Of a DNA stretch of 64,000 nt, positions 6,736-56,409 are shown piece by piece. Where the stretch lies: the NCBI GenBank assembly GCA_964530945.1, contig CAZHCJ010000002.1, forward strand, positions 14,899 to 78,898, in the 5' to 3' direction. Both the position numbers and the translations under genes were made by a program. Numbering within the stretch: position 1 is the stretch's first letter; each line of letters opens with the position of its first letter. This DNA comes from Candidatus Woesearchaeota archaeon (GTDB taxonomy: Archaea; Nanobdellota; Nanobdellia; Pacearchaeales; GW2011-AR1). The notes beneath the pieces were generated by a model. That model ran no database searches and had not been told where the DNA came from. It saw only the letters and a program-made list of their open reading frames with translations.

Positions 6736-6993
6736 ATGGTAAAAGAACTAATAGAAAAATTTGAAGAATTGGATAAAATTATGAATTGCGATTTACCAGA
6801 TGAACTTCCGCAAGAGGTAGATGAGATGTTTCAAGCAGCATATAGATTATGGGGAAAATATAGGTTTAAGATTGAAAGGGGGAACAGAATAAGTTCCAGA
6901 GAAGAAAGAGAATTTTCAAATCTTTTAGATAATATAGAAGAAAGGTTTGAATACATTAGAGATGGTATCTATGGGGTGGTTTTTGCAAGATAA
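6736..6993 (+). CDS. hypothetical protein
   Basis: 85-aa ORF directly upstream of gyrA. Confidence 0.3.
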
Positions 6994-7003
6994 AAATATA
7001 AAA

Positions 7004-9517: not shown

Positions 9518-9799
9518 ATGACAAGTGAAAATAGTGAATATAGACAATATCAAGTGGCAGTAGAATATGATAGTACTAGAGTTGGAGAAATTATTGGTGC
9601 AGGATTCGATAAAAAAGAAGGTTTGCAAATAGTGGGGCTAGGAGGAGCTTTTGATTTATCAGGTAGAGGATATGTTCTTGATGCCCATTTTTTCTATATA
9701 GGGCCAGAAGAAGATGCAAACACTTTTGCTGATAGGATGAGGGAAACTGGACTTGCAAAAGCAATCCATGTAGATCCCGTTTCGGATAGATTATCTTAA
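9518..9799 (+). CDS. hypothetical protein
   Basis: 93-aa ORF. Confidence 0.3.
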   Translation: MTSENSEYRQYQVAVEYDSTRVGEIIGAGFDKKEGLQIVGLGGAFDLSGRGYVLDAHFFYIGPEEDANTFADRMRETGLAKAIHVDPVSDRLS

Positions 9800-10578
9800 C
9801 TCTCAGAATTATTCCAAGCAGGACAAATATCTTTATATTCGCACCAATCACAGAGAACAGATTTGTTTGGAGGAAAGTGTGTTGTTGATTCTATTTCTTT
9901 TATCAATTCAAGAGTTTCTTTTTTAAGTTGTTTGAGTTGTTCGTTCGTTCTTTTTGATACAACTTTTTGATTATGTGCGAGAAAATGCCATATTAATTTT
10001 ACGGGCTTGTCTTCCCCAAACTTTTCTTTGATAGCAATTGAGTAAAGTGCTAGTTGTCTGTCTTGTTCACCATGGTTGTGTCTTGGTTGACTGTTACTTG
10101 TTTTGTAGTCATGTATTTCTAGTGTGTCACGCTCGAGGTCATGAACCAATCGGTCTATGAAACCTACTAGTTTAGTGTTTTCATCTAGGTCAATATAAAT
10201 CTTTTTTTCTATATCTATAGTGTTGTCATCAAAGGGTTTGTTTTGGAAGTAGTAATCCAGAAGAAAATGTATTCCTTTATTAAAATAATCTTCATGAGTC
10301 TTTCCTGGTTTTACTATAACCATTTTTGGATTGAATTCTTCTTTCCATATTTCGGCGTATTTTTTAATCAAGTCATCGACTTCAGGAAAACTATTTCCTT
10401 CATGGCTTTTTAATTTATTGTAAAACCATTCTAATGTACTATGAACAGAGCTTCCTAAATGAGCTTCAATACTTTTTTCAATCTTAGGAATGATTTTGTC
10501 AATGTAGCGAAATTTGTATTTAAGCTTGCATTGTTCAAAAGTAGAAAGTTTTGAATGCGAGTAAAACTTTATTGCCAT
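9796..10578 (-). CDS. PD-(D/E)XK nuclease, Cas4/RecB-like with Fe-S cysteine cluster (stand-alone)
   Basis: N-terminal Cys (FEQCKLKY), D..E.K core (GFIDRLVHD ... LEIHDYKTS), C-terminal CDWCEYKDICP (C-x2-C-x5-C): the Cas4/AddB-type 4Fe-4S arrangement; no cas genes or CRISPR nearby. Confidence 0.65.
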   Translation of the reverse strand: MAIKFYSHSKLSTFEQCKLKYKFRYIDKIIPKIEKSIEAHLGSSVHSTLEWFYNKLKSHEGNSFPEVDDLIKKYAEIWKEEFNPKMVIVKPGKTHEDYFNKGIHFLLDYYFQNKPFDDNTIDIEKKIYIDLDENTKLVGFIDRLVHDLERDTLEIHDYKTSNSQPRHNHGEQDRQLALYSIAIKEKFGEDKPVKLIWHFLAHNQKVVSKRTNEQLKQLKKETLELIKEIESTTHFPPNKSVLCDWCEYKDICPAWNNSES

Positions 10579-10631: not shown

Positions 10632-11714
10632 TTAATCGTTGGCTTCTGTCTCGGTTTCGCTTTCAGCCTCTATATCATTGGCCAGAAATCCCCACCAAGG
10701 TGCATTTTCTTGTAGAACTTCTCCTGTTTCAGAGTTTAATCTGAGTCTGAGACGCTCTTTTATTTTGAACAACCCTAAGAAACGTGCTTCTTTTCTTACT
10801 TCTGCCCTGTATTCTCCTTCTTCATCAAGTTCTATCTCTGTTTCGTTTTCATTGATTCTAGCTTCCAAGTGCGCTTTTATCTTTTCCATAACTTCTCCCG
10901 GGAGGACTTCAATTAAACGAGTTTCGTTATCTTTGAAAATTCCGTATACGCTTCTATTGTGGTGGTAAAGGGTAACGTTTGTTGAAGCATTAATGTTCTT
11001 TGATTGGATGATTATGTTTCCTGATTTTCCTGCATGGATTGTCATTGTTCTTTCTGTTTCCATTTTTCTAGTGATTTTAATTTTTATTTCCGCTTCTTCA
11101 TTTTCGGAAACTAACGAGGAAACTTCCTCGACAATTTCTTGTGTTAATGTCAATTGTTCTTCTGTCAAATCGCCTTTAGTTTCACTTTCAATATCTATCT
11201 CGCCATCATCTGTTTCTGCTTCTAATTCAAATTCTGCTTCGTACTCTAATGCATTGAAACTCTCTCTTAATTCTGTAATCGTCTCTCTCAATTCTTCTGA
11301 AAGGTCCACATTGCTTTCAATATCTATTTTTGTCCTTAATTTTTCTTGTGCTTGACATTTTAAAACAGCGCCAGTCCTATTACACCCTTCGGGAGAGCTT
11401 GCATTGTTTTGAGAATGAATTCTTAATCTGTTGCTTTCTTTCAATGCTTCTTGGAATCTTTCCCTAATTCTTTCAGCTTCTGCACCTTTTGCTTTTATCT
11501 TAATCTTTCTCTTTTCTCCTTCTGATTCAATCTCAATCTTTACTTCAGTATCTTCTTCCTCGATTTCTTCACCAACAATCGCATTGATTATATTCTCTCT
11601 TGCAGCCCTTTCTTTTTCTTCTGATCCGTTATCTTGTGCTAAAGTTAAAGGAATTCCCAGAACTATTCCTAATAAAAGAAGGATTGCGAAAAAGGTGAAC
11701 ACTCTTTTTTCCAT
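10632..11714 (-). CDS. secreted, highly acidic Glu-rich protein with N-terminal signal/TM segment
   Basis: N-terminal hydrophobic segment FAILLLLGIVLGIPLTLA then E/K-rich low-complexity. Confidence 0.55.
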   Translation of the reverse strand: MEKRVFTFFAILLLLGIVLGIPLTLAQDNGSEEKERAARENIINAIVGEEIEEEDTEVKIEIESEGEKRKIKIKAKGAEAERIRERFQEALKESNRLRIHSQNNASSPEGCNRTGAVLKCQAQEKLRTKIDIESNVDLSEELRETITELRESFNALEYEAEFELEAETDDGEIDIESETKGDLTEEQLTLTQEIVEEVSSLVSENEEAEIKIKITRKMETERTMTIHAGKSGNIIIQSKNINASTNVTLYHHNRSVYGIFKDNETRLIEVLPGEVMEKIKAHLEARINENETEIELDEEGEYRAEVRKEARFLGLFKIKERLRLRLNSETGEVLQENAPWWGFLANDIEAESETETEAND

Positions 11715-20270: not shown

Positions 20271-20969
20271 TTATTTAACACTTTGCGAAGTGTTAGCTTT
20301 TGTATTTGTTTGTTCTTCGGGTTCTTCATCTGTCAGGCCAAACGCAGTGAAAATGAGGTCAAAGAATCTTAATATAACTTCCAATAAAAATATGAAAGAT
20401 AAATAGTTGAGTATATTTGTGTAAAGTGAAGGGAGTGTGCTTATATGTCTCAAGACACGGCTAAATTCGAAGAAATTTGGGTCAAGTATAAATACGCCTA
20501 AGAGAGTGTAAGGGATTACCTTTGCTATTTCTTGGGCAATATTATTTCCGTTTTTTGGAATATAAGAAACCATACGTATTGCTGCTATGATTGTGACAGA
20601 TAAGAACAGAATCGTTTGAATCTCTAGATTTTCTGATAATAAAATGAGGAAAGATGCAAAAACTGCAAACCATATGAAGATTAGGAAAGGTAAAATGATG
20701 ATGTATTCTATGAAGTAAAGGAATCCTGCGAACATTTTTGTGAAGAAAGGGTGTTCAGAAGTGTTATATTTGTTCAGATTTAGCCGAATAATATTCTTTC
20801 TTCCAATGAATCTGTAAAATTTCCAAACCAAAACAGCATAAATCGTAATAAGCAAAACCATAAGAAAGATGTTGACAAAGTCTTGGAGATATGATGGAAA
20901 AACAGACAAAACTCCGTTATACGTGTTCAGAAAAACTGAGCTTGTTTGGTTCACCTCTGCCATAAACAC
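20271..20969 (-). CDS. polytopic membrane protein, unknown function
   Basis: Multiple hydrophobic segments; acidic C-terminal tail. Confidence 0.4.
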   Translation of the reverse strand: MFMAEVNQTSSVFLNTYNGVLSVFPSYLQDFVNIFLMVLLITIYAVLVWKFYRFIGRKNIIRLNLNKYNTSEHPFFTKMFAGFLYFIEYIIILPFLIFIWFAVFASFLILLSENLEIQTILFLSVTIIAAIRMVSYIPKNGNNIAQEIAKVIPYTLLGVFILDPNFFEFSRVLRHISTLPSLYTNILNYLSFIFLLEVILRFFDLIFTAFGLTDEEPEEQTNTKANTSQSVK

Positions 20970-21623: not shown

Positions 21624-22417
21624 GTTTATCTGGAGGGATCGATAGCACATCCATGCTCCTGCTTTTAAGTACCTTAAAGGAGAGATTACCCTCTTTTGAA
21701 ATATTTGCAGTTACTTATGATGATTTTAAGGGAAAGGAAGATCCCACTTACAATTATATAAAGGATTTAGCTGATTTTTTTGGAATAAATCATGAGATAA
21801 TAACTGAAAAGGAAATCATGTCTTTATTTAATCTTAAGATATCTCCAAAGAAAATTTTTAAAAATCTTATGAAAACAGAAGATGCCGATAAAGTTATGTA
21901 TGCAGATCATCATGTAATGAGAAGGACAATTGAGGCTTTTGCTGAAGAAAATAAAATCAAAAAAATTTTCTTAGGGTTACATGCTTCAGACATAATTGCG
22001 GGATTTTTGAACAGTTACATCACAGGATATGTTTCCAATCCGGCACCTAGAAGAATTGTGGGAGATTTTGAATATATGCTCCCATTATGTAACCTAACAA
22101 AGAAAGAGTTAAAAATCTATTCGAGTGTGAATAAATTGACACATATATCCTCTTCCGAGATAAACTCTTGGGAAATAAATCCTTTAGATTGTAATCTATA
22201 TTATTATTTAGCCGATCAGCTACAATTTTTTTGGCCAAATATCCATTCGTGGCTTATAGAAGGCCATAAAAGATTGTTTAAAAACTTAAGAAAAGAAGAT
22301 TATGTTCTTTGTAAAAATTGCAGGTCTCCTATCTTACCCCAGTCTAGAGACAAAATCTCCTTATGTGATGTATGTAAATTATTTGAGAAACATAATTATC
22401 TTCAGAGTAAGTTTTAA
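21584..22417 (+). CDS. PP-loop (adenine nucleotide alpha hydrolase) ATPase domain with C-terminal zinc-ribbon cysteines; no in-frame start codon for its SGGxDS motif
   Basis: RIVLGLSGGIDSTSMLLLL PP-loop motif lies upstream of the first ATG (21653) of this frame; C-terminal CKNCRSP...CDVCKLF. Confidence 0.55.
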   Translation, partial: NCYGIQNNDRIVLGLSGGIDSTSMLLLLSTLKERLPSFEIFAVTYDDFKGKEDPTYNYIKDLADFFGINHEIITEKEIMSLFNLKISPKKIFKNLMKTEDADKVMYADHHVMRRTIEAFAEENKIKKIFLGLHASDIIAGFLNSYITGYVSNPAPRRIVGDFEYMLPLCNLTKKELKIYSSVNKLTHISSSEINSWEINPLDCNLYYYLADQLQFFWPNIHSWLIEGHKRLFKNLRKEDYVLCKNCRSPILPQSRDKISLCDVCKLFEKHNYLQSKF

Positions 22418-30865: not shown

Positions 30866-31792
30866 TTGTTTTTTAATAACATGAAGTGGAAAAAATTTCT
30901 AAGCTTTCTTTTCATTATTTTAGTTGTACTTTTACTTGGGATGTATTGGTTTGTTCCGAACCAAGAACTAGAATTCTTCTTTGCGGAAAGAAATTATAAT
31001 TTTTCAGTAGGAAATCTTTCAGGAGAGATGCAATTTTATGATAATATGCGTTTTCCAACGAAGGATATAACCTATAGAATTGAAGATTGCACTATTCAAA
31101 AAGAAAGTGAAATGGAGCGCGCTTTTGAGATAATTGAAAATGAAACTTCATTGAATTTTGATTCTGTTTCTGAGAAAGAGCAAATACATGTCACTTGTGA
31201 TAGTAAGACAAAACTTAATGGGGCTTTATACATTGCAGGCGAAGGCGGCCCGTCGAATATAACCAAATCTGGCGAGTTTAATGTTATTGAAGGAGGCAAA
31301 ATTCTTTTAATAAGAGAGTCTCGTTGTGATAAACCCATTGTTCCCTTGCACGAATTGCTTCATGTTTTGGGGTTTAATCATTCACAAAATGAGAATAACA
31401 TAATGTATCCTGTCAGCAAGTGTAAACAAACAATCGGACAGGACATACTGGATTTTATAGAAAAGATTTATGGCTATCCTGGCTACTCCGATTTATTTTT
31501 TGAGGATGCTTCGGCTTCTAGAAGCGGCACATATCTCAATATCAATTTTACGGTTAGAAATGGAGGTTTAAACAACGCTGAGAATTCTAGTGTTGTAATT
31601 TATGCTGATGATTCAGAAATAAAGAGGTTTGAGGTTGAAGAAATGGGTATAGGGGAAGGAAGAAATGTTATCCTTAGTAATATATTTAGTTTGAAAAGAA
31701 ACATAAATGAAATGCGTCTTGAGTTAGAATATGGAGGAAGTGAGCTGAGTAAAGAAAATAATGTTGCGTTGCTTGAAATAAAAAATAATTAG
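30866..31792 (+). CDS. membrane-anchored metzincin-type zinc metalloprotease
   Basis: N-terminal TM; HELLHVLGFNHS (HExxHxxGxxH) plus Met-turn-like NIMYP. Confidence 0.6.
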   Translation: MFFNNMKWKKFLSFLFIILVVLLLGMYWFVPNQELEFFFAERNYNFSVGNLSGEMQFYDNMRFPTKDITYRIEDCTIQKESEMERAFEIIENETSLNFDSVSEKEQIHVTCDSKTKLNGALYIAGEGGPSNITKSGEFNVIEGGKILLIRESRCDKPIVPLHELLHVLGFNHSQNENNIMYPVSKCKQTIGQDILDFIEKIYGYPGYSDLFFEDASASRSGTYLNINFTVRNGGLNNAENSSVVIYADDSEIKRFEVEEMGIGEGRNVILSNIFSLKRNINEMRLELEYGGSELSKENNVALLEIKNN

Positions 31793-32918: not shown

Positions 32919-34319
32919 TTACCCTAAATCAACCTTATCAGAGTCCTTATCTTTTTCTATAGGTTCTGTTACAAAATAAGCACGGTTACTTTCTGATTCG
33001 TTTATATCTCCTTCACGTTCAAATATTGCCGTTGCTCTCGGAAGCGCAAATTTGCCCATGACTCCGACTTTAGAATAAATTATGTAACTTAGAACTCGAA
33101 CTTCTCCAGCTTCGAGTTTTTCAAAATTCCATTCTATTTTTTTAGATTTTTCATCAACTCTATCTGGTTTTTCCACTCCGAATTTATCGTAAATTTTTAC
33201 CAATGGAGGCAAACGGTCAATGACGTTTACGCGTTCAATGTATTTTTGAGATTTAAGCATTATAGTTACTTTAAGTGCAAATTCTCCTCCTTTAGATCTT
33301 ACGTGAGAGACCCTCTTTCTTATTACGAGATTTGTTCTAGAGTATTTCTTGACTATTATCACTATTGCCACAATAAACAAGATTAGTATGAATGGAAAAA
33401 GCCAGTTTGTTTGCACGTTTATTTTTAGTGATTCTCCTGGGTTTATTTCTCGGCTCCAGGTATAATAAATCTTGAAGCCTTGACGCTCAACATTATCTGG
33501 TTGAGGGCTCAAAGTGGTAAAAAGTCTTGAAATAATATTTTTCTTTATCGTTGTTTCAGATTCTACTATTGTGTTTCCTTTGTTGTTTTTTTCAATAATT
33601 TGATTGTTTATGAAAAATCCGTAATCCTGACGTGTTGTTGTTAGTAAATCTTTTTCTTCAAATTCAATAGTGCCTTCAATGTTTGTTGTCTCGCCATGAG
33701 TTTTTATTTCTGCGTTAAGAGTGTAGAATCCTGCCTTTAACTTTTTGAATTCTTCTTCATTTAAATCAAAATCAAAATCCACTCTTTCTTTTGGTCCTAA
33801 ATCAAAAGTTTCTTCAGTTTGGAAAAAAACACTCTCAAATTCTACTTTAGTTTCACCAAAATCAAAGTTTTTCAAATTTTGGAGATAGATACTTATCGTG
33901 TTGGAATCTATATCTACTTCGCTTGAGCCAACTTCAAAAGCATTTTCTAATGGAACAATCTCGAAAGTCAATCTCTCTTCTTGTTCTTCACCATCGTTTG
34001 CCTTTATATGATATGTGAATGTGTAAAATCCTTTTTTATCGATTTCGGAAATGGGTTTTATTTTAAGCTCAACATTTTCAGTTGCACCTTGGGGAATGTA
34101 AACAGTTCCTTTAGGAAACATCTCAAATCCCAAAAGATTGTAAAACTGAAAATTCTCGCTTTGTCCGAAATTCTTTATCTCTAGATTGAAGGTTGCCGGT
34201 TGGTTTAGTTCTTGTATTAACACACCTTTTTCTCCTATCTGTTCAACATTTAAATTTATTGCTATTACTGAAGGCAAAATTATTAACATACATAAAAACC
34301 ACACCAGTATTTTTTTCAT
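32919..34319 (-). CDS. cell-surface protein: signal peptide, large extracellular domain, C-terminal TM anchor and short cytoplasmic domain
   Basis: N-terminal ILVWFLCMLIILPSVIA; TM FPFILILFIVAIVIIV near residue 300; no recognisable catalytic motifs. Confidence 0.55.
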   Translation of the reverse strand: MKKILVWFLCMLIILPSVIAINLNVEQIGEKGVLIQELNQPATFNLEIKNFGQSENFQFYNLLGFEMFPKGTVYIPQGATENVELKIKPISEIDKKGFYTFTYHIKANDGEEQEERLTFEIVPLENAFEVGSSEVDIDSNTISIYLQNLKNFDFGETKVEFESVFFQTEETFDLGPKERVDFDFDLNEEEFKKLKAGFYTLNAEIKTHGETTNIEGTIEFEEKDLLTTTRQDYGFFINNQIIEKNNKGNTIVESETTIKKNIISRLFTTLSPQPDNVERQGFKIYYTWSREINPGESLKINVQTNWLFPFILILFIVAIVIIVKKYSRTNLVIRKRVSHVRSKGGEFALKVTIMLKSQKYIERVNVIDRLPPLVKIYDKFGVEKPDRVDEKSKKIEWNFEKLEAGEVRVLSYIIYSKVGVMGKFALPRATAIFEREGDINESESNRAYFVTEPIEKDKDSDKVDLG

Positions 34320-34733: not shown

Positions 34734-35240
34734 CTAAGATTTTTTACCTTCTAAGTCTAACCATGCTTTCGCTTGCCCTAAGAACTGGTCGCACCCGTTT
34801 GCAATTTTGTCTTCCATTTCATCAACTCTAGATTTTATGACCCATTTCTCATAAATCCCTCTCAGAAATTTTTTCATTGCAGTCCCTTCAAACTTGTTAT
34901 CATAATCTTTTACTAAAATTCCTTTAACTTTGATTTTAACTGAACCTTGGTTTGTTCTTATTTTAACCCCCTCACGCATTGCTTCAACATTTTTCAAAGC
35001 TTTTGCTTCCATTATAATTTTCATCTCAAATTTGAAATAATCTGTCATTTTTCTAGAACCTTTCCATTCGGCTTTTATTTCTTTTTCATCACCCTTTATC
35101 TTTTCTTCATATTTCTCTTCTTCAACATCAAGCATTGTTTCATCTGTTAACCATTCATAGCAAAATTGATAGAAGTCTTTAAATGAAAATACACCTCCAT
35201 ATTTTATTTCGCTGGAGAAGATTGTGTCTTTCTCTGCCAT
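34734..35240 (-). CDS. hypothetical protein (start at internal ATG, MAEKD...)
   Basis: K/E-rich, no family recognised. Confidence 0.4.
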   Translation of the reverse strand: MAEKDTIFSSEIKYGGVFSFKDFYQFCYEWLTDETMLDVEEEKYEEKIKGDEKEIKAEWKGSRKMTDYFKFEMKIIMEAKALKNVEAMREGVKIRTNQGSVKIKVKGILVKDYDNKFEGTAMKKFLRGIYEKWVIKSRVDEMEDKIANGCDQFLGQAKAWLDLEGKKS

Positions 35241-35539
35241 TACTTTAAAAAAAGAATGACGATTTAAATATTTAACTAAACACACGAATGTTTTTAATCT
35301 TGAAATATTTTTAGTTTTAATGAAGTTAAGGGAAATTCTACTTTACGAGAATGGTTCTAAAAGAAATTTTTACGTTGTTTTATCTAGGGGTTTTTATGGC
35401 TGTTATGAGAATTTCCAAAATGGAGATAGAGACCATTTAGTAAGTTTTCCCATTTTAGATTTAGAAAGAATGGTTCTTGAAGAACTTTTTGGAGACGGAA
35501 AATCGGATGAAATATGGGTGATTAATTACGATAAATAAA

Positions 35540-36578: not shown

Positions 36579-38219
36579 ATGGCAGATAAACCAGTAGTTT
36601 TGATGCCTGAAGACATCCAACGCATTATGGGAAAAGATGCTCAGAGAAACAATATTTTAGCGGCTAGAATGGTTTCAGAGATAGTCAAAACAACACTTGG
36701 GCCTAGAGGAATGGATAAAATGCTTGTTTCTCCTACTGGTGAGATAATTGTTACGAATGATGGAGTCACAATTCTTAACGAAATGCAAATTGAACATCCT
36801 GCCGCAAAGATGATGGTTGAAATTGCCAAAACTCAAGAATCAGAGGTTGGAGATGGTACTACGACCGCTGTTATGCTTGCAGGAAAATTACTTGAAAATG
36901 CAGAGAAGTTGCTTGATAGTAAAATACATCCTACTGTTATAACGAAAGGTTATCGTATGGCTGCTGAAAGACTTCAAGAAATACTTAAAGATGTTTCATT
37001 GAAAATTACTCCTGAGGATGAAGATGTTCTAAAACAAATAGCAATGACTGCTATGACCGGAAAAGGAGCTGAAGATTCAAGAGAGCATTTTGCGACGATA
37101 ATTGTCAATGCTGTGAAACAGATTAGAGAGCAAGGAAAAATTGATTTAGATAACATTAAAATTGAAAAATCTAAAGGAGACGGGATAAAAGACACTGAGT
37201 TAATCACAGGCATAGTGGTTGATAAGGAGCGAGTTTCTAAAGATATGCCTAGAGTCATTGAAAATGCCAAAATTGCAATGATTGATTTTCCTTTAGAATT
37301 GAAAAATCCTGAAATTGAAACAAAAATTTCAATTACCTCACCAGACCAATTAAAGAGTTTTTTGGCTCAAGAGGAAACTGAGATAAAAGAACTCATAGGA
37401 AAAGTTAAAGAATCTGGGGCGAATGTTGTTTTTTGTCAGAAAGGAATAGATGATTTCGCACAATATCTTTTATCTAAAGAAGGTATTTATGCTATAAGGC
37501 GAGTAGCAAGAAGCGATATGGAAAAACTTGCAAAAGCAACCAGTGGAAAAATAGTTTCAAATATTTCAGAGTTGACTCCTTTTGAGTTAGGGAATGCAAA
37601 ACAAGTTGAAGAGGTGAAACACGGTGAGGATACGCTTACTTATGTTAAAGGTTGTGAAAATCCTAAAGCTTTAACTATTCTTATTCATGGAGGGACGGAC
37701 CATGTTATAGACGAAATTGAGAGAGCTATAAGAGACGGATTGGGGGACGTTTCTTGCGCTTTGGAGTCTGGCTTGGTTGTAACAGGAGGTGGGGCAATAG
37801 AAATTGAACTTGCTAAACGTCTCCGTGAATTTTCTCAGGGTTTAAGTGGCAGAGAACAACTAGCTGTAGAAGAATTTGCCTCTGCTCTTGAATTCATACC
37901 CATTACGTTGGCCGAAAATGCTGGCTTAGACCCTATAGATATTCTTACAGAACTCAAAGCGAAACACGATTCAGGGGAAAAGAATGCTGGGCTGAATTTA
38001 TTTACCGGGAAAATTGAAAATGTTCTTGAGGCACGTATCGTAGAGCCATGGAAGATAAAAAGTCAGGCAATAAATTCTGCTAGTGAAGTAGCCATAATGA
38101 TTTTAAGAATTGATGATGTTATTGCTTCAAACGACGGAAGTAGTAGTGGTGCGAGAAAAGGTCGTTTAGCCGGTAGGGGTCAGGGTGCAGGTATGCCTGG
38201 AATGTATGATGAGTTTTAA
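36579..38219 (+). CDS. ths: thermosome subunit (group II chaperonin)
   Basis: [13 protein letters not shown]-binding GDGTTT, C-terminal Gly/Met tail [13 protein letters not shown]; 546 aa. Confidence 0.92.
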
Positions 38220-38225
38220 GAAGAG

Positions 38226-39437
38226 TTATTCTATATCCACGCCTTTTTCCGCTTTGTAGATATTTAAACCCCAGTTATTACTCATTTCGTGAAAATTTTC
38301 TAAGTAAGTGTCGAACGAATAGCTATTTCTTCTTTCAAAATCTTCTTTTGCTTTTGTCAGTGTCTCGGGATTTTCTATTGAATTCTTCCAATTGGTGACA
38401 TCTCTTAGATATCTCCATGTCAATCCTTTTCCGACTTTTCCTGGGGCCCGGTAATATTCTACTCCGTAATCCCAACTTCCATGAATTCTTTCTCCTTCAG
38501 AAACAATTCTTCCGGCTACATCCAAAACCTTTATTAAGTGAGCTCTGTCATCATATTCTTGCGCACATACAGGGTCATAGTCACATTCTTCCAACATTTC
38601 TTTAATTTCTTTTCCGTGTGTGAAATCACTTGCACTTGTGGAATTTCCAAGAATTGTCATTCCCCATTGCTCTGCAGTAGTTCCTTGAACATGGACAACT
38701 CCCAATCCACCATCATTGCTCGCATTTGGCTGAACAGGATCTCCATAACTCTCTTGCATAATCATTCCTGCCAAAGTGTTTTCTGGTATTCCGTATGCTT
38801 CTTCAACAGCATGATAAATAGGTTGCCATCTTAGCGTTCTTTGAATTCTCCCTATTGTTGAGTTTTTTTCTGCAAGTCTTGTTCCTGAAAAATCGTGCTC
38901 AACTAAAGGTTCATATCCTAATCTTTCATATAAAGAACCTTCCTGTCCGTGAGGTGTGGCTGGTCTTGAAGTTGCTTCCGATGCAGTTTCATCAGATTGT
39001 TCAATCATTTGCTCTTGTGTAAAATCACTAATGACCTGGTTTGCGTAAGGTTTTAGTTGGCTTCCACTAAAGGCAAGTCCTGAAACCAATGCTCCTGTTT
39101 TCAGCCAAGATAAAGGTCTGATTTCTTCAACTTTTGAATTAATTTTACCTACAAAATTCTTAACTTTGGTGAGTTTTTCTTTATTCAATACCATATAATC
39201 GGTGACACCCAATGCAGCACCTGTTCCCAACATAATGAGTGCATTTGTAGGATCAGAATATTCTGATTTATCTATCAAATCCGTTGTAGCAAGTATTGCG
39301 CCTCCATTTACGGCACCAAAGGCTAGTATTTTATCTAAGCCATTCCCAATTTTCTGCTTACCAGTATCTAACGCCCTTGCAGCACTTTCAATAGTTTCTG
39401 TTATTGTCATTTTCAATAAAAAATGATGAAAAAACAT
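38226..39437 (-). CDS. lytic transglycosylase-like (SLT/lysozyme-like domain) protein with N-terminal hydrophobic region
   Basis: ENTLAGMIMQESYGDP...SNDGGLGVVHVQGTTA resembles the SLT catalytic E-S...GLMQ core; the sequence as printed around 39415-39425 appears one A short of what both overlapping track ORFs imply, so the exact start is uncertain. Confidence 0.5.
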   Translation of the reverse strand: MFFHHFLLKMTITETIESAARALDTGKQKIGNGLDKILAFGAVNGGAILATTDLIDKSEYSDPTNALIMLGTGAALGVTDYMVLNKEKLTKVKNFVGKINSKVEEIRPLSWLKTGALVSGLAFSGSQLKPYANQVISDFTQEQMIEQSDETASEATSRPATPHGQEGSLYERLGYEPLVEHDFSGTRLAEKNSTIGRIQRTLRWQPIYHAVEEAYGIPENTLAGMIMQESYGDPVQPNASNDGGLGVVHVQGTTAEQWGMTILGNSTSASDFTHGKEIKEMLEECDYDPVCAQEYDDRAHLIKVLDVAGRIVSEGERIHGSWDYGVEYYRAPGKVGKGLTWRYLRDVTNWKNSIENPETLTKAKEDFERRNSYSFDTYLENFHEMSNNWGLNIYKAEKGVDIE

Positions 39438-39487
39438 ATTTAAAAACCTTTCTATTGTAGTTATTTGATAGAAGTAACAATATGCTT

Positions 39488-40252
39488 CTAACCTGTTTTT
39501 GAAAGTGCTAAATTGAATTCTTCTTGCGAAATGAAACCATATTCATGCAAAAGCCACAACCTTCTTCTAATTTTTGAGTTGTTTGGATGATGGAGCTCAA
39601 GTATGTTGGTGTTTAATTCAGAATTTATTCCAACTTTCAAAGAATAAACATATCTGTTTGTTTCTGCAATATCTTCTTCGAGATTAGATCCTGCAAGAAC
39701 AGATACAAGTCCTTCCCGTATTAAATCTTCTCTCTTATTTCTATAATCTCCATATTTTGTGCCTATTGAATTCCATTCTTCTATGAGTTTTAAGCGTTTT
39801 CTATAAGGCATCTTTCTGAATGCTACATGCCCCCCAATTTCGTGGACCATTACACCTCCATCGGGAGAATAGATTTCAACTATAAAACCAGGTTTCAAAA
39901 AATAATTATCTCTTGAAGGATGATCTTTTGGAGCAAAATATGTTTTTCCCAGCGCTCTAGTATTCCCAAACATCCCTTGGGTGACAGACTTTTCACCAAT
40001 TCCAAAACCTCTGATTTGACTTATGTGTGAATCAAAAGTGTCCCAGTTTTCTTTGGCCTGGGAGTAGGCCTGAGAAAGAACATTTCTATACTTTCTTATT
40101 TCTTCTTCAGATAAATTTTCAGAGATGAAAATTTCTTCAGGAATGAAATAAGTGATGTTTTCATTAGATGTATTGCTTGAGAGATTTAGTGTGCTTCCTA
40201 AACTAAGTAAACCCACTAAACCCAAGGCTAATGATTTTTTTATTTTTTTCAT
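39488..40252 (-). CDS. secreted putative zinc metallopeptidase (HEIGGH)
   Basis: Signal peptide LALGLVGLLSLGS; MVHEIGGHVAF HExxH motif. Confidence 0.5.
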   Translation of the reverse strand: MKKIKKSLALGLVGLLSLGSTLNLSSNTSNENITYFIPEEIFISENLSEEEIRKYRNVLSQAYSQAKENWDTFDSHISQIRGFGIGEKSVTQGMFGNTRALGKTYFAPKDHPSRDNYFLKPGFIVEIYSPDGGVMVHEIGGHVAFRKMPYRKRLKLIEEWNSIGTKYGDYRNKREDLIREGLVSVLAGSNLEEDIAETNRYVYSLKVGINSELNTNILELHHPNNSKIRRRLWLLHEYGFISQEEFNLALSKTG

Positions 40253-40343
40253 AAAGAATTATTCAAAGCGTTACTTATAATTTTTTATTTAAAAAATTGT
40301 AATAATAAAAAAGAAAGAGAAAGCCTAAGGCTTTCTTTAAGAA

Positions 40344-42687: not shown

Positions 42688-43227
42688 ATGGAAGAAGAGT
42701 TTAGAAGAGTAAGAGAATCTATAAGAGCACTTGAAAGATCTTGTAAGCGGGAGCTTGGAGATGCTACTCGGAGAGTGAATGAACTCGAAGGAAATACTTA
42801 CCAACACGGAAGAAGAGTTGAAGGTGCTTATGATAAAGGAATGCGTGCTGGGAGAAGTGAGAGCTACCAAAATGTTTATGATTCACTAGACACATTTTTC
42901 AGAGGCGAGGGAGAAGTTTATGTTATGGAAGCTCATAATCCAGAAGAATGGAACGGAGATTTTAATCTAAGACCTCTTTCAAGTGGCGAGGTAGAATCTA
43001 TTTATACAAAAGTTTCGGATTTGCCGAAAATCCAAAGTCGCGCAGTAAGAAGTTTAGAACATGAAGGAGTCACGAGATTAGGGCAGGTTGCATTAAGAAC
43101 AGAAGAACAACTTTTGAATGTGGACAATTTTGGAGTCAAATCTCTTGAATTTTTTAGGCAGGCTTTAGCAGAAAGAGGCTTGCGTTTTGGAATGGACTTA
43201 TTGGGGTATGTGCCTTCTACTGAGTAA
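42688..43227 (+). CDS. protein with C-terminal helix-hairpin-helix domain resembling the bacterial RNA polymerase alpha C-terminal domain; Arg-rich, elevated GC
   Basis: VRSLEHEGVTRLGQVALRTEEQLLNVDNFGVKSLEFFRQALAERGL follows the alphaCTD pattern (..v..L.......LL...N.G.KSL.EI...L...GL); local GC is visibly higher than neighbours. Confidence 0.4.
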   Translation: MEEEFRRVRESIRALERSCKRELGDATRRVNELEGNTYQHGRRVEGAYDKGMRAGRSESYQNVYDSLDTFFRGEGEVYVMEAHNPEEWNGDFNLRPLSSGEVESIYTKVSDLPKIQSRAVRSLEHEGVTRLGQVALRTEEQLLNVDNFGVKSLEFFRQALAERGLRFGMDLLGYVPSTE

Positions 43228-45195: not shown

Positions 45196-47205
45196 ATGAG
45201 GTTAAAACAATTTACATTAATTTTTTCAATTACTCTACTTTTGTCTTTTTCTCCGTTTGTTTTGGCGGGAGAAATCAAACCAGATTTATCTGAGATAATT
45301 TCTGAAAAATATATGGGGGAAAAAGTTTCCGTAATTATTATACTTGAAAATTTACCAACCCCTGAAGATATAAGTATTCTCCAATCGGATGGAGCTGACA
45401 TTGAACATCAATATGGTATAATAAATGCTGTCGCTGCACAAATTCCTGTACAGGCCGCAGAAAAGATAGCAGAAAGAAATTTTGTTAAACTGGTTGAGCC
45501 AGATTATAGTGTTAAACTTGTTCTTGATGAAAGCATTCCTCAAATCCAAGCGGATAGGGTTTGGGATTTAGGAGTTAGTGGAAAAGAAATAGATGTTGCA
45601 GTTTTAGATACAGGGATTTATGACGAACATTCTTCTTTAAGTGTTGAAAGAGAAATAGATTACACTGGGGAAGGAACAAATGATTTACATGGTCATGGGA
45701 CGCATGTAGCAGGAATAATAGCTTCTAGCGATTCAACTTATAGGGGTGTTGCTTTTGATTCTGATTTGTTTAATGTAAAAGTTTTAAATAAAGAAGGAAG
45801 TGGTTATGGTTCAGACGTTATTGAAGGAATTGAATGGGCAATTGATAATGGGGCAGAAGTTTTAAGCATGAGTTTTGGGGCAGAAATAGATAATTGTGAT
45901 GGAACGGACGCTCTTTCTATGGCTGTTGATGAGGCAGTAAGTCAGGGCATTGTGGTAGTGGTTGCAGCGGGAAACTCAGGACCTGATGAAGGAACAATAA
46001 CAACACCAGGATGTTCAAAAGGAGCAATTACCGTGGGAGCTGTAGATGGCAACGACAATATTCCAAGTTTTAGCAGTAGAGGTCCAACAGACGATGGAAG
46101 AACAAAACCAGATTTGGTTTCTCCTGGAGTCGCAATAATTTCTACATGGAAAGATAATTCGTTTGAGTCGTTATCAGGAACATCGATGTCAACACCCCAT
46201 GTTTCAGGAATTGTTGCTTTATTGATGGAAGTGAATTCGACTCTTAACCCCTCTGAGATAAAAGAATCACTAAAATCGACTGCTCTTGATTTAGGTTTAG
46301 ATGAGAATACTCAGGGTTCTGGGAGAGCCGATGCTTATGAATCTTATCTATACGTTTTAAATTTCACAAGTAATGATGAATTTAGAGATGATACGAATGA
46401 TACTGAAAATCCTAAAGAAGAAAATGAATCAGATGGAATAAACGAATCGGATGGAACAGAAGAAGCAAAGAATGAAACAGAAGAAGATTCAAGATTTAAT
46501 CCCGGAATAAAACCTGGAAGTATTTTTTACGGCTTAGATAAACTTTTCGAGAGAATAAATTTGGCTTTAACATTTGACCATTTGGAAAAAGCAAAGCTTC
46601 ATGTTGAATATTCTGAAGAAAGATTGGGAGAAGCACAATATTTGATTGAAAAAGGAGATATTGAAAGTGCTCAAACATCCATAGAAGATTATGGAGAAAG
46701 TTTAAACAATTCTATGAGAATATCTAAAATGGCTAAGGGTTTAGGGGAAAATACAACTAGCGTTGATGCACTTGTTGCGGAAGCAACATCTATACATTTG
46801 AAAGTTCTTGGAGAGATATATAATAAAGTTCCAGAACAAGCGAGAAGCAGTATTGAAAAATCAATAGAAAACAGTGCAAGAGGAAGAGAAAATGCAGTTA
46901 ACGCCTTGAGAGAAACAGATAAATCAAAAGAAAGCATACAAGAGGAAATAGAAGAAGAGGGGAGAGAATCTAATATGGGAGAAAATAAAACAAAAGAGTC
47001 TGGAGAGGGTGAAGAAAGTGAAAGAGATGAAATTGATAAATCTTTGGAGGGTCTTGAAGATCCTGCCAAAACGAAGATAAAAGAAATTCAAGAAAAAGTA
47101 ATTTCTGAAAAGGTTTCTTCCAAAAGTAATTCTCTCCCTGCAGAAGATAAAGCCACAGGTTCTAATCCCCCAAGTTCAGCAAATTCCAATAGAGGTGGAC
47201 CTTAA
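45196..47205 (+). CDS. secreted subtilisin-like serine protease (S8) with long acidic Ser/Glu-rich C-terminal extension
   Basis: Signal peptide; catalytic triad contexts VAVLDTGI (D), HGHGTHVAGIIAS (H), GTSMSTPHVSGIVALL (S). Confidence 0.9.
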   Translation: MRLKQFTLIFSITLLLSFSPFVLAGEIKPDLSEIISEKYMGEKVSVIIILENLPTPEDISILQSDGADIEHQYGIINAVAAQIPVQAAEKIAERNFVKLVEPDYSVKLVLDESIPQIQADRVWDLGVSGKEIDVAVLDTGIYDEHSSLSVEREIDYTGEGTNDLHGHGTHVAGIIASSDSTYRGVAFDSDLFNVKVLNKEGSGYGSDVIEGIEWAIDNGAEVLSMSFGAEIDNCDGTDALSMAVDEAVSQGIVVVVAAGNSGPDEGTITTPGCSKGAITVGAVDGNDNIPSFSSRGPTDDGRTKPDLVSPGVAIISTWKDNSFESLSGTSMSTPHVSGIVALLMEVNSTLNPSEIKESLKSTALDLGLDENTQGSGRADAYESYLYVLNFTSNDEFRDDTNDTENPKEENESDGINESDGTEEAKNETEEDSRFNPGIKPGSIFYGLDKLFERINLALTFDHLEKAKLHVEYSEERLGEAQYLIEKGDIESAQTSIEDYGESLNNSMRISKMAKGLGENTTSVDALVAEATSIHLKVLGEIYNKVPEQARSSIEKSIENSARGRENAVNALRETDKSKESIQEEIEEEGRESNMGENKTKESGEGEESERDEIDKSLEGLEDPAKTKIKEIQEKVISEKVSSKSNSLPAEDKATGSNPPSSANSNRGGP

Positions 47206-47420: not shown

Positions 47421-47591
47421 CCTAAGAATTCAATGGATGTTTCAGTATTTTTGGATGAGAAATATACTTAATTCTTTACATAATTTTTGAGAAATAAATG
47501 TTGTCCTCGAGAACCAAAACCTTAATAAACGTCTCTTTATCTCTATAAATACTTCTTAATCAATCTTAAATTGAGTGAAAGGAGGTTAAAA

Positions 47592-48305
47592 ATGTCTGAA
47601 GAAAATACAATAACGTTCAAAAAAGATACTCTATGGAAAGTTGGAACAGCTGTGTTTGCTATTCTTTTTGTATTTGCATTGCTCGGCGGATTCGGCTCAT
47701 TAGGAAGTAGTTCAGGAGCCGTTGTCGATGACAAAGATGCAGGACAACAAGATGATGTGAATGCAAAAGCTCTTATTGAAGATAATGATCCTGTTTTAGG
47801 AAATGAAGATGCTGAAGTTTCAATCGTCGAATTTAGCGATTTTCAGTGTTCATTTTGCGCGAGAGCCCATACAGGAGCGATGGCTGATTTTAAGGCAAGT
47901 AGTTATTTTACCAATGGTGAAGTAAATTTTGTTTACAAGCATTTGCCTTTGAATAGCATTCATCCACAAGCTCAAGAAGCTGCAGAAGCTTCATTATGTG
48001 CTCAAGACCAAGAATCTTTCTGGGAATACCATGATATGCTTTTCGCAAATCAAGGAGCTCTAGATACAAGTAGTTTGAAATCTTATGCTGCACAACTTGG
48101 ACTCGACACAGGAGAGTTTAATGAGTGTCTTGATAGTGGAGAAAAAGCTTCCGAGGTTAATAAAGAGACGGCTCAAGCAACTTCTGCTGGAGCGAGAGGA
48201 ACACCTTATTTCCTTGTTGTTAACACAAAAACGGGAGATGCTACAAGTGTTTCAGGAGCAGTTCCATTTTCACAATTCGAGACCGCAATTAATGCGGTTC
48301 TTTAA
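47592..48305 (+). CDS. DsbA-like thiol:disulfide oxidoreductase, membrane-anchored (copy 1)
   Basis: SD AAAGGAGG; N-terminal TM; FSDFQCSFCARAH CxxC in a thioredoxin fold; cis-Pro region GTPYFLV. Confidence 0.7.
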   Translation: MSEENTITFKKDTLWKVGTAVFAILFVFALLGGFGSLGSSSGAVVDDKDAGQQDDVNAKALIEDNDPVLGNEDAEVSIVEFSDFQCSFCARAHTGAMADFKASSYFTNGEVNFVYKHLPLNSIHPQAQEAAEASLCAQDQESFWEYHDMLFANQGALDTSSLKSYAAQLGLDTGEFNECLDSGEKASEVNKETAQATSAGARGTPYFLVVNTKTGDATSVSGAVPFSQFETAINAVL

Positions 48306-55662: not shown

Positions 55663-56409
55663 ATGTCGAAAGAAACAATTACATTAAAAAGAGACACTTT
55701 GTGGAAAGTTGCTACAGGTATTTTTGCGTTATTATTTATAGTTGCATTGTTTTCGGGAGGGCTTAATTTTTCGGGACCTGATAGTCAAGGAACTTCAGGA
55801 AACAGCGTGGTTCAACAACCAAATCAACGGCCTTCAATAGTGGAAGCTAGTGTTGATGATGATCCTGTTTTTGGAAATGAAAATGCTCCTGTAACAATGA
55901 TAGAATTTAGTGATTACCAGTGTCCTTTTTGTAGAAAATTCTGGACAGAAACATTACCACAAATAAAATCAGAATATATTGATACAGGTAAAGTTAAATT
56001 TGTTTACCGTGATTTTCCTTTGAATAGTATACATCCAAGTGCCCAGGCAGCGGCAGAAACTGCTGAATGTGTGAGAGATAACTATAGTGAAGATGCTTAT
56101 TGGGAAATACATGATAAGATTTTCTCAGAGCAAAATATTCTTGATGGAGGAGACCCTATAATAGGTCCTGTAAAAGGAACAGTGCAATTTAGTGAAAATG
56201 ATCTAAAGAATTGGGCAAGTGATCTAGGATATGAAATAGGAGGTTGTCTTGATTCTGGAAAATTCACGAGCGAAGTTCAAAAAGATATTACTGATGCAAC
56301 AGCCGCAGGAGGTCGTGGAACACCATATTTTGTCATTAATGGTCAACCATTGAGCGGAGCACAACCTTTTAGTTCATTTAAGCAGGTAATTGATGCAGAA
56401 TTATCTTAA
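55663..56409 (+). CDS. DsbA-like thiol:disulfide oxidoreductase, membrane-anchored (copy 2)
   Basis: SD AAAGGAGG; FSDYQCPFCRKFW; same architecture as copy 1 (ITLKRDTLWKVATGIFALLF). Confidence 0.7.
   Translation: MSKETITLKRDTLWKVATGIFALLFIVALFSGGLNFSGPDSQGTSGNSVVQQPNQRPSIVEASVDDDPVFGNENAPVTMIEFSDYQCPFCRKFWTETLPQIKSEYIDTGKVKFVYRDFPLNSIHPSAQAAAETAECVRDNYSEDAYWEIHDKIFSEQNILDGGDPIIGPVKGTVQFSENDLKNWASDLGYEIGGCLDSGKFTSEVQKDITDATAAGGRGTPYFVINGQPLSGAQPFSSFKQVIDAELS

Follow-up and report, generated by a model that had tools for sequence, protein, structure and literature searches.

A divergent GH23 (SLT-type) enzyme of a DPANN archaeon, likely membrane-held and directed at bacterial murein, encoded next to a secreted zincin-like protein

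The 403-aa SLT-like protein encoded in the window (the whole stretch of 64,000 nucleotides analyzed here) is a genuine though divergent GH23/SLT enzyme, as judged from its fold, its conserved residues and its homology to bona fide SLT proteins. We consider it likely that the protein is a membrane-held muramidase or lytic transglycosylase that cuts bacterial murein, and that the neighboring gene, for an HExxH protein, is not a conserved partner. The enzyme is a further, poorly annotated case of the GH23 enzymes known in DPANN, and its family is found almost only in that group of small archaea of symbiotic type (Pacearchaeota, Woesearchaeota, Nanoarchaeia). A preliminary description of this DNA had drawn attention to the two genes, and the motifs that it quoted are present in the translations, MQESYGDP...GGLGVVHVQ in the 403-aa ORF and HEIGGH in the 254-aa ORF. 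Both ORFs were confirmed as same-strand neighbors, but their order is the reverse of that proposed: the HExxH gene lies 5' and is transcribed first, and the SLT-like gene second. The features of the locus are the following:

38226-39437, minus strand: gene for the 403-aa SLT-like (GH23) protein, stop codon at 38226-38228 (ORF list)
38229-38912, minus strand: GH23/SLT catalytic domain, residues 176-403
38751-38753, minus strand: codon for Glu229, the predicted catalytic acid/base of the E-S motif (translation QES)
38913-39053, minus strand: acidic, poorly conserved linker, residues 129-175 (pLDDT, alignment, charge)
39054-39437, minus strand: family-specific N-terminal helical region, residues 1-128 (hydropathy, loop charges, model)
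39438-39487, minus strand: 50-bp spacer between the HExxH and the SLT-like genes (sequence read)
39488-40252, minus strand: gene for the 254-aa secreted zincin-like protein, a distant Peptidase_Mx1 relative (ORF list)
39827-39844, minus strand: HEIGGH zinc-binding motif, residues 137-142 (translation)
40175-40252, minus strand: signal-peptide-like N-terminus, about residues 1-26 (hydropathy peak of 1.46 at residues 7-25)
40318-40336, minus strand: terminator-like hairpin and T-run in the interval between the DoxX and the HExxH genes (terminator scan)

The predicted structure of the 403-aa protein (mean pLDDT 81.7) has a lysozyme-like alpha-helical fold and matched GH23 structures in a fold search. 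The E-S motif of GH23/SLT enzymes is present as E229-S230, and these two residues, as well as D242, G246, Q251 and Y343, are invariant in all 28 homologues of the alignment from which our conservation counts are taken (30-60% identity). In a PDB sequence search, E229 was aligned with the catalytic Glu64 of E. coli MltE, which is the residue changed in PDB entries titled 'inactive mutant E64Q'. Motifs II and III occur in variant form, as G246-x-x-H249-x-Q251 (GLGVVHVQ) in place of the canonical GLMQ and as Y342-Y343-R-x-P-G (YYRAPG) in place of AYNxG, and BLASTP lines them up with the GLMMFQ and AYNRG of relatives from Bacteroidota. The catalytic domain ends in a DPANN-specific helical extension (residues 350-403, approximately). 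Thus, the GH23/SLT fold and the conserved catalytic Glu foreseen in the preliminary description are both borne out, by the predicted structure, the GH23 fold matches and the invariance of E229; a model with neither a lysozyme-like fold nor a conserved Glu, set beforehand as the outcome that would overturn this reading, is not what we obtained for the 403-aa protein.

Membership of PF01464 is established through transitive homology and fold, because direct searches gave nothing or marginal matches: the 403-aa protein had no match at E<=1 in a Pfam scan, and so falls below the PF01464 gathering threshold, while the matches to EmtA in an NCBIfam scan (E 0.0098) and to the PDB (E 0.07 in the sequence search, 0.0099 in the profile search) are marginal. 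Sixty-five homologues were found, and wherever a source is named, it is a DPANN or an unclassified archaeon; a precomputed PF01464 match exists for 8 of the 65. When the members of the family were scanned, 13/28 matched PF01464, the best at 8e-10. The closest non-archaeal relatives found are uncharacterized membrane SLT proteins of Bacteroidota, from Prolixibacteraceae/Sunxiuqinia MAGs (L021:27-1091, L022:4518-5555). These score 54-58 bits on PF01464, for which the cut-off is 21.3; the Sunxiuqinia membrane protein, with 58 bits, is 36% identical to the 403-aa protein (E 3e-34).

The hydrophobic N-terminus noted in the preliminary description resolves, by hydropathy, into three helices and not into a classical signal peptide. 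These helices are moderately hydrophobic (residues 37-55, 66-84 and 106-124, with Kyte-Doolittle means of 1.55, 1.57 and 0.82, respectively), and residues 1-128 are modelled as long helices with a pLDDT of 60-77. The linker that follows has a pLDDT of about 49-58 and a net charge of -5, and its length and sequence vary in the alignment. Over the family, loop 1 and the linker are both acidic, and loop 2 is basic, with a charge of +1 to +7 in most members. The three-helix segment is probably a membrane anchor, and the conserved positive-inside charge pattern would place the catalytic C-terminal domain outside; this placement is not secure, because helix 3 is weakly hydrophobic, at 0.82 in the 403-aa protein and 0.3-1.4 over the family. 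The sole two cysteines of the protein, C285 and C291, are kept in 22/28 and 21/28 homologues, and their conservation, together with the DsbA-like genes present in the window, is suggestive of an extracellular location. Short relatives of the protein have a lipoprotein-like N-terminus.

Bacterial murein appears to be the likely substrate, because some relatives carry LysM domains or adjoin a gene for an N-acetylmuramoyl-L-alanine amidase. In the short, lipoprotein-like subclade, an Amidase_3 gene is found directly 3' of the SLT-like gene at L004, L005 and L018, with an OmpA-like gene nearby at L004 and L005; at L001, a second SLT gene adjoins the SLT-like gene. Beyond the fold, the catalytic residues and the SLT homology, which we regard as established, we infer a biological role for the enzyme. 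The three N-terminal helices would keep the enzyme anchored in the membrane of the archaeon, the acidic, flexible linker would let the catalytic domain reach outward, and Glu229, acting as general acid, would cleave the beta-1,4 MurNAc-GlcNAc bond of bacterial peptidoglycan. The target could be, at the site of contact, the wall of a bacterium that serves as host or prey, or else murein debris used as food.

The product of the neighboring gene is a secreted zincin-fold metallohydrolase and putative peptidase, distantly related to Peptidase_Mx1. It starts with MKKIKKSLALGLVGLLSLGS, a typical n-region and h-region, and several N-x-S/T sequons (N23, N27, N32, N46) are clustered after this signal-peptide-like N-terminus. 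HEIGGH lies within a modelled helix (residues 132-146) of a zincin fold resembling PDB 4l7a, and H137, E138, H142 and D194 are invariant in 9/9 aligned members of the family. The downstream EDxAE segment, in which D194 (9/9) and E193 (8/9) are found, is aligned with SEDIAE of 4l7a and would contribute the third, acidic metal ligand. The signal-peptide HEIGGH protein announced in the preliminary description is in keeping with these observations, as a putative metallopeptidase with a signal-peptide-like N-terminus by hydropathy. On Peptidase_Mx1 (PF15890) the 254-aa protein scores 15.7 bits, below the gathering cut-off of 25.6, and 8/9 members of its family match PF15890 at E<=1, the best at 6.1e-07. 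The first matches of the family are to Peptidase_Mx1/4l7a, with anthrax lethal factor and Pro-Pro endopeptidases next; no match to known murein peptidase families (M15, M23, M74 and others) was seen, and no link of the Peptidase_Mx1 family to peptidoglycan was found. Relatives are few: a word-indexed search with the HExxH protein returned the self-match alone, a profile search added two and an exhaustive HMMER search gave 8, all distant.

The two genes are flanked by a thermosome gene on one side and by DoxX, VIT1, glutaredoxin and thioredoxin-reductase genes on the other, on one contiguous sequence, and the GC content is uniform across the pair and its flanks (0.34-0.37). The window also codes for aIF2-gamma, aIF5B, ribosomal protein S6e and diphthamide synthase, which with the thermosome gene confirm the archaeal host supposed at the outset. 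On the basis of the housekeeping flanks and the ordinary GC, the SLT-like gene is a native archaeal gene. The organism encodes several secreted proteases, the 254-aa zincin among them. Within the 50-bp spacer, a Shine-Dalgarno-like element, GAAAGGT, lies some 9-15 nt 5' of the ATG of the SLT-like gene, and a search of the spacer for a terminator-like hairpin revealed none; the HExxH and SLT-like genes may be co-transcribed. The hairpin at 40318-40336 likely marks the start of a separate transcription unit, although the number of terminator-like sites equals that expected from shuffled sequence, which limits the weight of this hairpin and makes the evidence weak. A sigma-70 promoter scan found fewer sites than in shuffles, with a promoter model that is not applicable to archaea.

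Could the two proteins form a dedicated wall-degrading pair, the SLT-like enzyme cutting the glycan and the HExxH peptidase the stems or cross-links, both from one operon? Such a functional pair had been suggested in the preliminary description. It accords with the shared strand, with a short gap free of terminator-like sites and a terminator-like hairpin upstream of both genes, with the extracytoplasmic look of both proteins, with the co-occurrence of both families in the Aenigmarchaeota MAG JAGVVU01 and with the pairing of other clades of the SLT-like family with a peptidoglycan amidase. We nevertheless consider it unlikely. Searches by tblastn of the SLT-like loci (L001-L008, L012-L020) were negative: in 12 distinct related loci, no HExxH relative was found as far as about 5 kb from the SLT-like gene. 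Likewise, no SLT-like gene was found beside the HExxH relative in the Aenigmarchaeota loci L009-L011. In JAGVVU01 itself, which has both families (L011, L017), the genes sit on different contigs. Moreover, the HExxH family is matched to Peptidase_Mx1/4l7a and not to a murein peptidase family; hence neither conserved adjacency nor a peptidase of murein-specific type, the two marks of a two-gene peptidoglycan-hydrolase module, is found here. The metallopeptidase gene is best read as a chance neighbor and not as a conserved partner, in an adjacency particular to this genome; the same-strand gap of 50 bp may still reflect a local functional link between the two genes. As a separate observation, the contig carrying P0009 has an upstream gene of 253 aa with a faint Hydrolase_2 match.

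The fold does not fix the type of reaction or the substrate, because GH23 also includes chitinases and hydrolytic lysozymes. The domain might accordingly target a glycan other than murein, such as chitin or chito-oligomers, the glycan of the organism's own envelope or the wall of an archaeal host (pseudomurein, for example), maybe to make way for pili or other surface structures. This we regard as rather unlikely, given that relatives adjoin genes for Amidase_3, which is MurNAc-L-Ala-specific, and for OmpA-like proteins, and that the closest relatives outside the archaea are the Bacteroidota membrane SLT proteins. For pseudomurein, which the preliminary description had offered as a substrate, the LysM domains of some relatives tell in the same direction; the N-acetyltalosaminuronic acid of this polymer is beta-1,3-linked, and the polymer is resistant to enzymes of the lysozyme type. 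Archaeal homologues of peptidoglycan hydrolases, in addition, occur mostly outside the producers of pseudomurein (PMC12352652). Far less probable still is that the genes are non-native or non-functional, left behind by a virus or a mobile element, or bacterial and binned by error into the assembly of an archaeon. SLT domains originate from bacteria or phages, the closest relatives outside DPANN belong to bacteria, and weak PHROGs matches were obtained to a phage transglycosylase (E 5e-05) and to an internal virion protein with an endolysin domain (E 1e-04). However, the flanking genes lie on the same contiguous sequence with the same GC, both ORFs are intact, and the catalytic residues are invariant over the 28 homologues in spite of their divergence; a pattern-based scan of IMG/VR, of limited sensitivity, returned no relatives. 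We therefore set aside the viral relic entertained in the preliminary description and rejected MAG contamination as well as a prophage.

An SLT-like enzyme is, as had been remarked, unexpected in archaea in general, but this does not hold for Pacearchaeota and Woesearchaeota, for which murein transglycosylases have been reported, and the same wall-directed role of their GH23 proteins proposed (PMC8204110, PMC9723730, PMC11537232, PMC12352652). GH23 was reported as "absent" from some Pacearchaeota genomes (PMC11537232); surveys of this kind may undercount the enzymes, because a precomputed SLT match exists for so few of the 65 homologues and for the 403-aa protein not at all. Genomes offer few clues as to which cells uncultured DPANN use as hosts or prey, and murein-cleaving enzymes in murein-free archaea are one of them; this idea is already in the literature and is unchanged by the present finding. 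The practical addition is a compact GH23 family (about 400 aa) whose conserved N-terminal region is probably a membrane anchor and which Pfam-based annotation largely fails to see; being small and tractable, it lends itself to a direct test of whether archaea act against bacterial walls. It is conceivable, although we hold the idea with considerable doubt, that this three-helix-anchored family is a widespread, contact-dependent DPANN tool for breaching the walls of bacterial hosts. If so, the tethered enzyme would act solely where archaeon and bacterium touch, and the murein would be opened there to let through a cytoplasmic bridge or a structure for feeding; the organism, and with it the many Pacearchaeota and Woesearchaeota that carry the family, would live as episymbionts or predators on bacteria and not on archaea; the trait would be far commoner in DPANN than in published surveys, because most members are missed by standard Pfam annotation; and the secreted zincin, possibly co-transcribed, might be a helper recruited in this genome.

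With respect to known systems, the 254-aa protein is archaeal, whereas Peptidase_Mx1 (PF15890; PDB 4l7a, BACCAC_01431 of Bacteroides caccae) and the TIGR04549 zinc metallohydrolase lipoproteins are from Bacteroidota, and the NWDxFD motif and the C-terminal YGFxSxxE motif are specific to its own family. The 403-aa protein differs from the bacterial family-1 lytic transglycosylases (GH23, PF01464; E. coli MltE/EmtA, P. aeruginosa MltD and MltF, Slt70) in being encoded by an archaeon not expected to make murein and in lying below Pfam detection. The DPANN family has GLGxxHxQ as motif II and YYRxPG as motif III, an insertion of about 45 residues between motifs and, at the C-terminus, about 50 further residues of helical structure; a three-helix N-terminus specific to the family stands where those enzymes have a lipoprotein signal or a single anchor. 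The Bacteroidota membrane SLT proteins come closer, with 36-39% identity over the catalytic core, the same insertion between motifs, a similar size (345-354 aa) and a hydrophobic multi-helix N-terminus preceding the catalytic domain. In contrast to the 403-aa protein, they score above the Pfam threshold, their motifs, GLMMFQ and AYNRG, are canonical-like, their N-terminus has no sequence similarity to the archaeal one, the C-terminal extension is missing, and their carriers have a murein of their own to remodel. Goose-type lysozymes and the GH23 chitinase of Ralstonia sp. A-471 hydrolyze their substrates, chitin in the case of the latter, and do not form 1,6-anhydro products; the Glu-to-Asp-to-Gln spacing of the 403-aa protein may resemble that of goose-type (g-type) lysozyme. 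Finally, the published GH23 proteins of DPANN come from the same lineages, belong to the same catalytic superfamily and have the same proposed role, the binding or degradation of bacterial walls in episymbiosis or predation; those proteins, of fam00969, are described as large, of up to about 3000 aa, and from them the present family, of about 400 aa and with a conserved, putative N-terminal anchor of its own, is set apart.

It is likely, in our view, that the SLT-like protein is a membrane-anchored, outward-facing muramidase or lytic transglycosylase of family GH23 acting on bacterial peptidoglycan, encoded beside an unrelated secreted zincin. The preliminary description placed both ORFs correctly on one strand but reversed the gene order: the HExxH gene is transcribed first and, after a 50 bp gap, the SLT-like gene follows, its end separated by 6 bp from a convergent thermosome gene.

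Window 36579-38219, convergent with the SLT-like gene: thermosome subunit (Cpn60_TCP1, E 3e-183)
Window 38226-39437 (-): SLT-like gene, intact ORF, 403 aa, with MQESYGDP...GGLGVVHVQ
Window 39488-40252 (-): HExxH gene, intact ORF, 254 aa, protein start MKKIKKSLALGLVGLLSLGS, with HEIGGH

Direct detection of the SLT-like protein is close to nil. A Pfam scan returned nothing at E<=1, the NCBIfam EmtA match is marginal (E 0.0098), and so is the PDB sequence match to MltE (E 0.07). Its homologues (n=65, 34-100% identity) carry exclusively archaeal source names (Pacearchaeota, Woesearchaeota, Nanoarchaeota, Nanoarchaeia and "archaeon"); a precomputed match to PF01464, the GH23/SLT family, exists for eight of them and LysM for six. 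Among 28 aligned members, PF01464 is matched by 13 (best 8e-10) and LysM by two, and all 28 share E229-S230, D242, G246, Q251 and Y343. In a residue-by-residue alignment, E229 falls on MltE Glu64, the position changed in the structures labelled "inactive mutant E64Q". Two Bacteroidota relatives came from scanning GTDB species genomes, both exceeding the Pfam SLT threshold (58 and 54 bits vs 21.3), one of them 36% identical to the SLT-like protein over 165 residues (E 3e-34).

L021 27-1091 and L022 4518-5555: membrane SLT proteins of Sunxiuqinia and Prolixibacteraceae MAGs, 345-354 aa, the closest non-archaeal relatives found

In the alignment with the Bacteroidota relative, GLGVVHVQ of the archaeal protein is paired with GAGLMMFQ, and YYRAPG with AYNRG, which explains the divergent motifs. 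The SLT reading was checked for a missing lysozyme-like fold or catalytic Glu and was not refuted, because of the homologues, the invariant catalytic residues and the Bacteroidota relatives that pass Pfam. Together these findings establish the protein as a real GH23/SLT enzyme.

The fold itself does not discriminate between lytic transglycosylases, hydrolytic lysozymes and chitinases of GH23; the top structural identities are to g-type lysozyme (20%) and a GH23 chitinase (19%). Murein is nevertheless the best-supported substrate, if indirectly, since LysM domains occur within the family. Gene associations also bear on the question. Members of a short clade have a downstream Amidase_3 (N-acetylmuramoyl-L-alanine amidase) gene that overlaps the SLT-like gene in L004, L005 and L018, and in two of these loci (L004 and L005) an OmpA-like gene adjoins.

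L004 6001-7724; L005 749-2472; L018 1352-3117: SLT-like + Amidase_3 unit of the short, lipoprotein-like clade

The arrangement has the appearance of a truly conserved unit of two murein-degrading enzymes in DPANN genomes other than this one. In another locus (L001), a second SLT protein of 617 aa is encoded directly after the SLT-like gene, and on the contig of family member P0009 the upstream gene has a faint Hydrolase_2 match. Pseudomurein has no MurNAc and contains beta-1,3 links, and the LysM and gene associations thus point to bacterial walls. A viral relic, as had been suggested, or contamination is unlikely: PHROGs matches exist, weak and to generic transglycosylase, but housekeeping genes flank the two genes, their GC is ordinary, and a pattern-based scan of IMG/VR returned no relatives. 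It is plausible that the catalytic domain was acquired from bacteria by ancient transfer, the Bacteroidota-like proteins being the closest relatives found; these may resemble the donor lineage.

Residues 1-128 of the SLT-like protein form a family-specific region with conserved LDK, SDPTN, GxGA and RPxSWxKTG motifs and three moderately hydrophobic helices (37-55, 66-84 and 106-124; Kyte-Doolittle means 1.55, 1.57 and 0.82), the third only weakly so. In the family as a whole, helix 1 is followed by an acidic loop and helix 2 by a basic one (+1 to +7 in most members), with an acidic or neutral linker after that. Because these charges fit the positive-inside rule, the N-terminus would lie inside and the catalytic domain outside. 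Three further observations support the outside location: members with LysM; the short clade (P0062-P0064), whose single hydrophobic N-terminal segment ends in a Cys and looks like a lipoprotein signal; and the sole cysteines, C285 and C291, conserved in 22 and 21 of the 28 members, together with DsbA-like genes in the window, whose products are consistent with disulfide bonds being formed in exported proteins, the conserved Cys pair of this enzyme included.

Window 47571-48305 (+) and 55663-56409 (+): two DsbA-like thioredoxin-fold proteins

Residues 129-175 are an acidic linker modelled with low confidence, and residues 350-403 a helical extension, modelled with confidence, in which F367, N371, Y378 and N388 are conserved.

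The HExxH protein is nearly an orphan. An indexed homologue search found only the protein itself, whereas exhaustive HMMER searching across 1.8 billion representatives brought up eight relatives (E 1e-7 to 1e-3), one from an Aenigmarchaeota MAG. Their alignment shows no variation at H137, E138, H142 and D194, nor in the N-terminal WD and C-terminal YxFxSxxE motifs; eight of nine family members match Peptidase_Mx1 (PF15890; best 6.1e-07), and the protein itself scores 15.7 bits, below the cut-off of 25.6. Four N-x-S/T sequons follow its signal-like segment. It is a putative secreted metallohydrolase of the zincin fold, and its homologues, motifs, Pfam matches and sequons hold no tie to peptidoglycan.

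The local layout is compatible with a single transcript, since a terminator-like hairpin (40318-40336) stands upstream of the pair, after a DoxX gene, none was found between the two genes, and GAAAGGT precedes the second ATG. The adjacency is not conserved, however. By tblastn, no HExxH relative occurs in 12 distinct SLT-like loci (L001/L015, L003, L004/L019, L006, L007/L014, L008, L012, L013, L016, L017, L018 and L020), and the three loci that surround the Aenigmarchaeota HExxH relative contain no SLT-like gene. The MAG JAGVVU01 has both families on separate contigs (SLT-like on L017, HExxH on L011), its SLT-like gene being apparently split, which may reflect a frameshift, pseudogenization or faulty assembly.

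L017 334-1601: SLT-like gene as two overlapping ORFs (287 + 159 aa), Aenigmarchaeota MAG JAGVVU01

SLT-like neighbours differ by locus: a DHH phosphoesterase gene (DHH/DHHA1) upstream in L001 and L003, an Nre gene (Nre_N/Nre_C) downstream, which is the next gene in L003 and L013 and comes behind the second SLT gene in L001, and RNase HII, metallophosphatase and others in the remainder; the DHH/Nre synteny is absent from the window. The proposed glycan-plus-peptide set is therefore unsupported for this pair, but does hold elsewhere, in the short clade, with Amidase_3 as partner.

The window is low in GC (0.30-0.37) and encodes archaeal markers (thermosome subunit, aIF2-gamma, aIF5B, ribosomal protein S6e, Kae1/TsaD and a diphthamide synthesis protein). 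Other genes deserve mention.

3671-6133 (+) and 6947-9457 (+): bacterial-type DNA gyrase genes, in an archaeon; GyrB carries an intein (Intein_splicing, residues 438-620) between its GyrB domain and Toprim
9796-10578 (-): PD-(D/E)XK nuclease, Cas4 match weaker
30866-31792 (+): likely secreted matrixin/astacin-like metalloprotease with CARDB
45196-47205 (+): likely secreted S8 subtilase with DUF5667
42688-43227 (+): 179 aa, C-terminus matching the bacterial RNA polymerase alpha-subunit C-terminal domain (PF03118, E 2.5e-07), odd for an archaeon
10632-11714 (-), 20271-20969 (-), 21653-22417 (+), 32919-34319 (-), 34734-35285 (-): five ORFs of 183-466 aa, no Pfam family at E<=0.001, typical DPANN hypothetical proteins

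The two proteases and the HExxH protein suggest a sizeable extracellular protease set.

Archaeal GH23 enzymes of this kind are already known. Rinke 2013 and Castelle 2015, as cited in PMC8204110, recorded murein-type lytic transglycosylases in both Pacearchaeota and Woesearchaeota. PMC8204110 itself describes them as extracellular and large, reaching 3000 aa, and suggests that the hosts are bacteria. GH23 in Woesearchaeota has been linked to proposed "vampiristic" predation (PMC9723730), many Pacearchaeota genomes encode GH23 (PMC11537232), and some archaeal peptidoglycan hydrolases, whose homologues are found especially among Nanoarchaeota, kill bacteria in experiments (PMC12352652). The Bacteroidota membrane SLT proteins share the inter-motif insertion of the archaeal protein but lack its helical extension. 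What sets the present family apart is its compact size (~400 aa), an anchor region peculiar to it, divergent motifs and the fact that Pfam mostly misses it.
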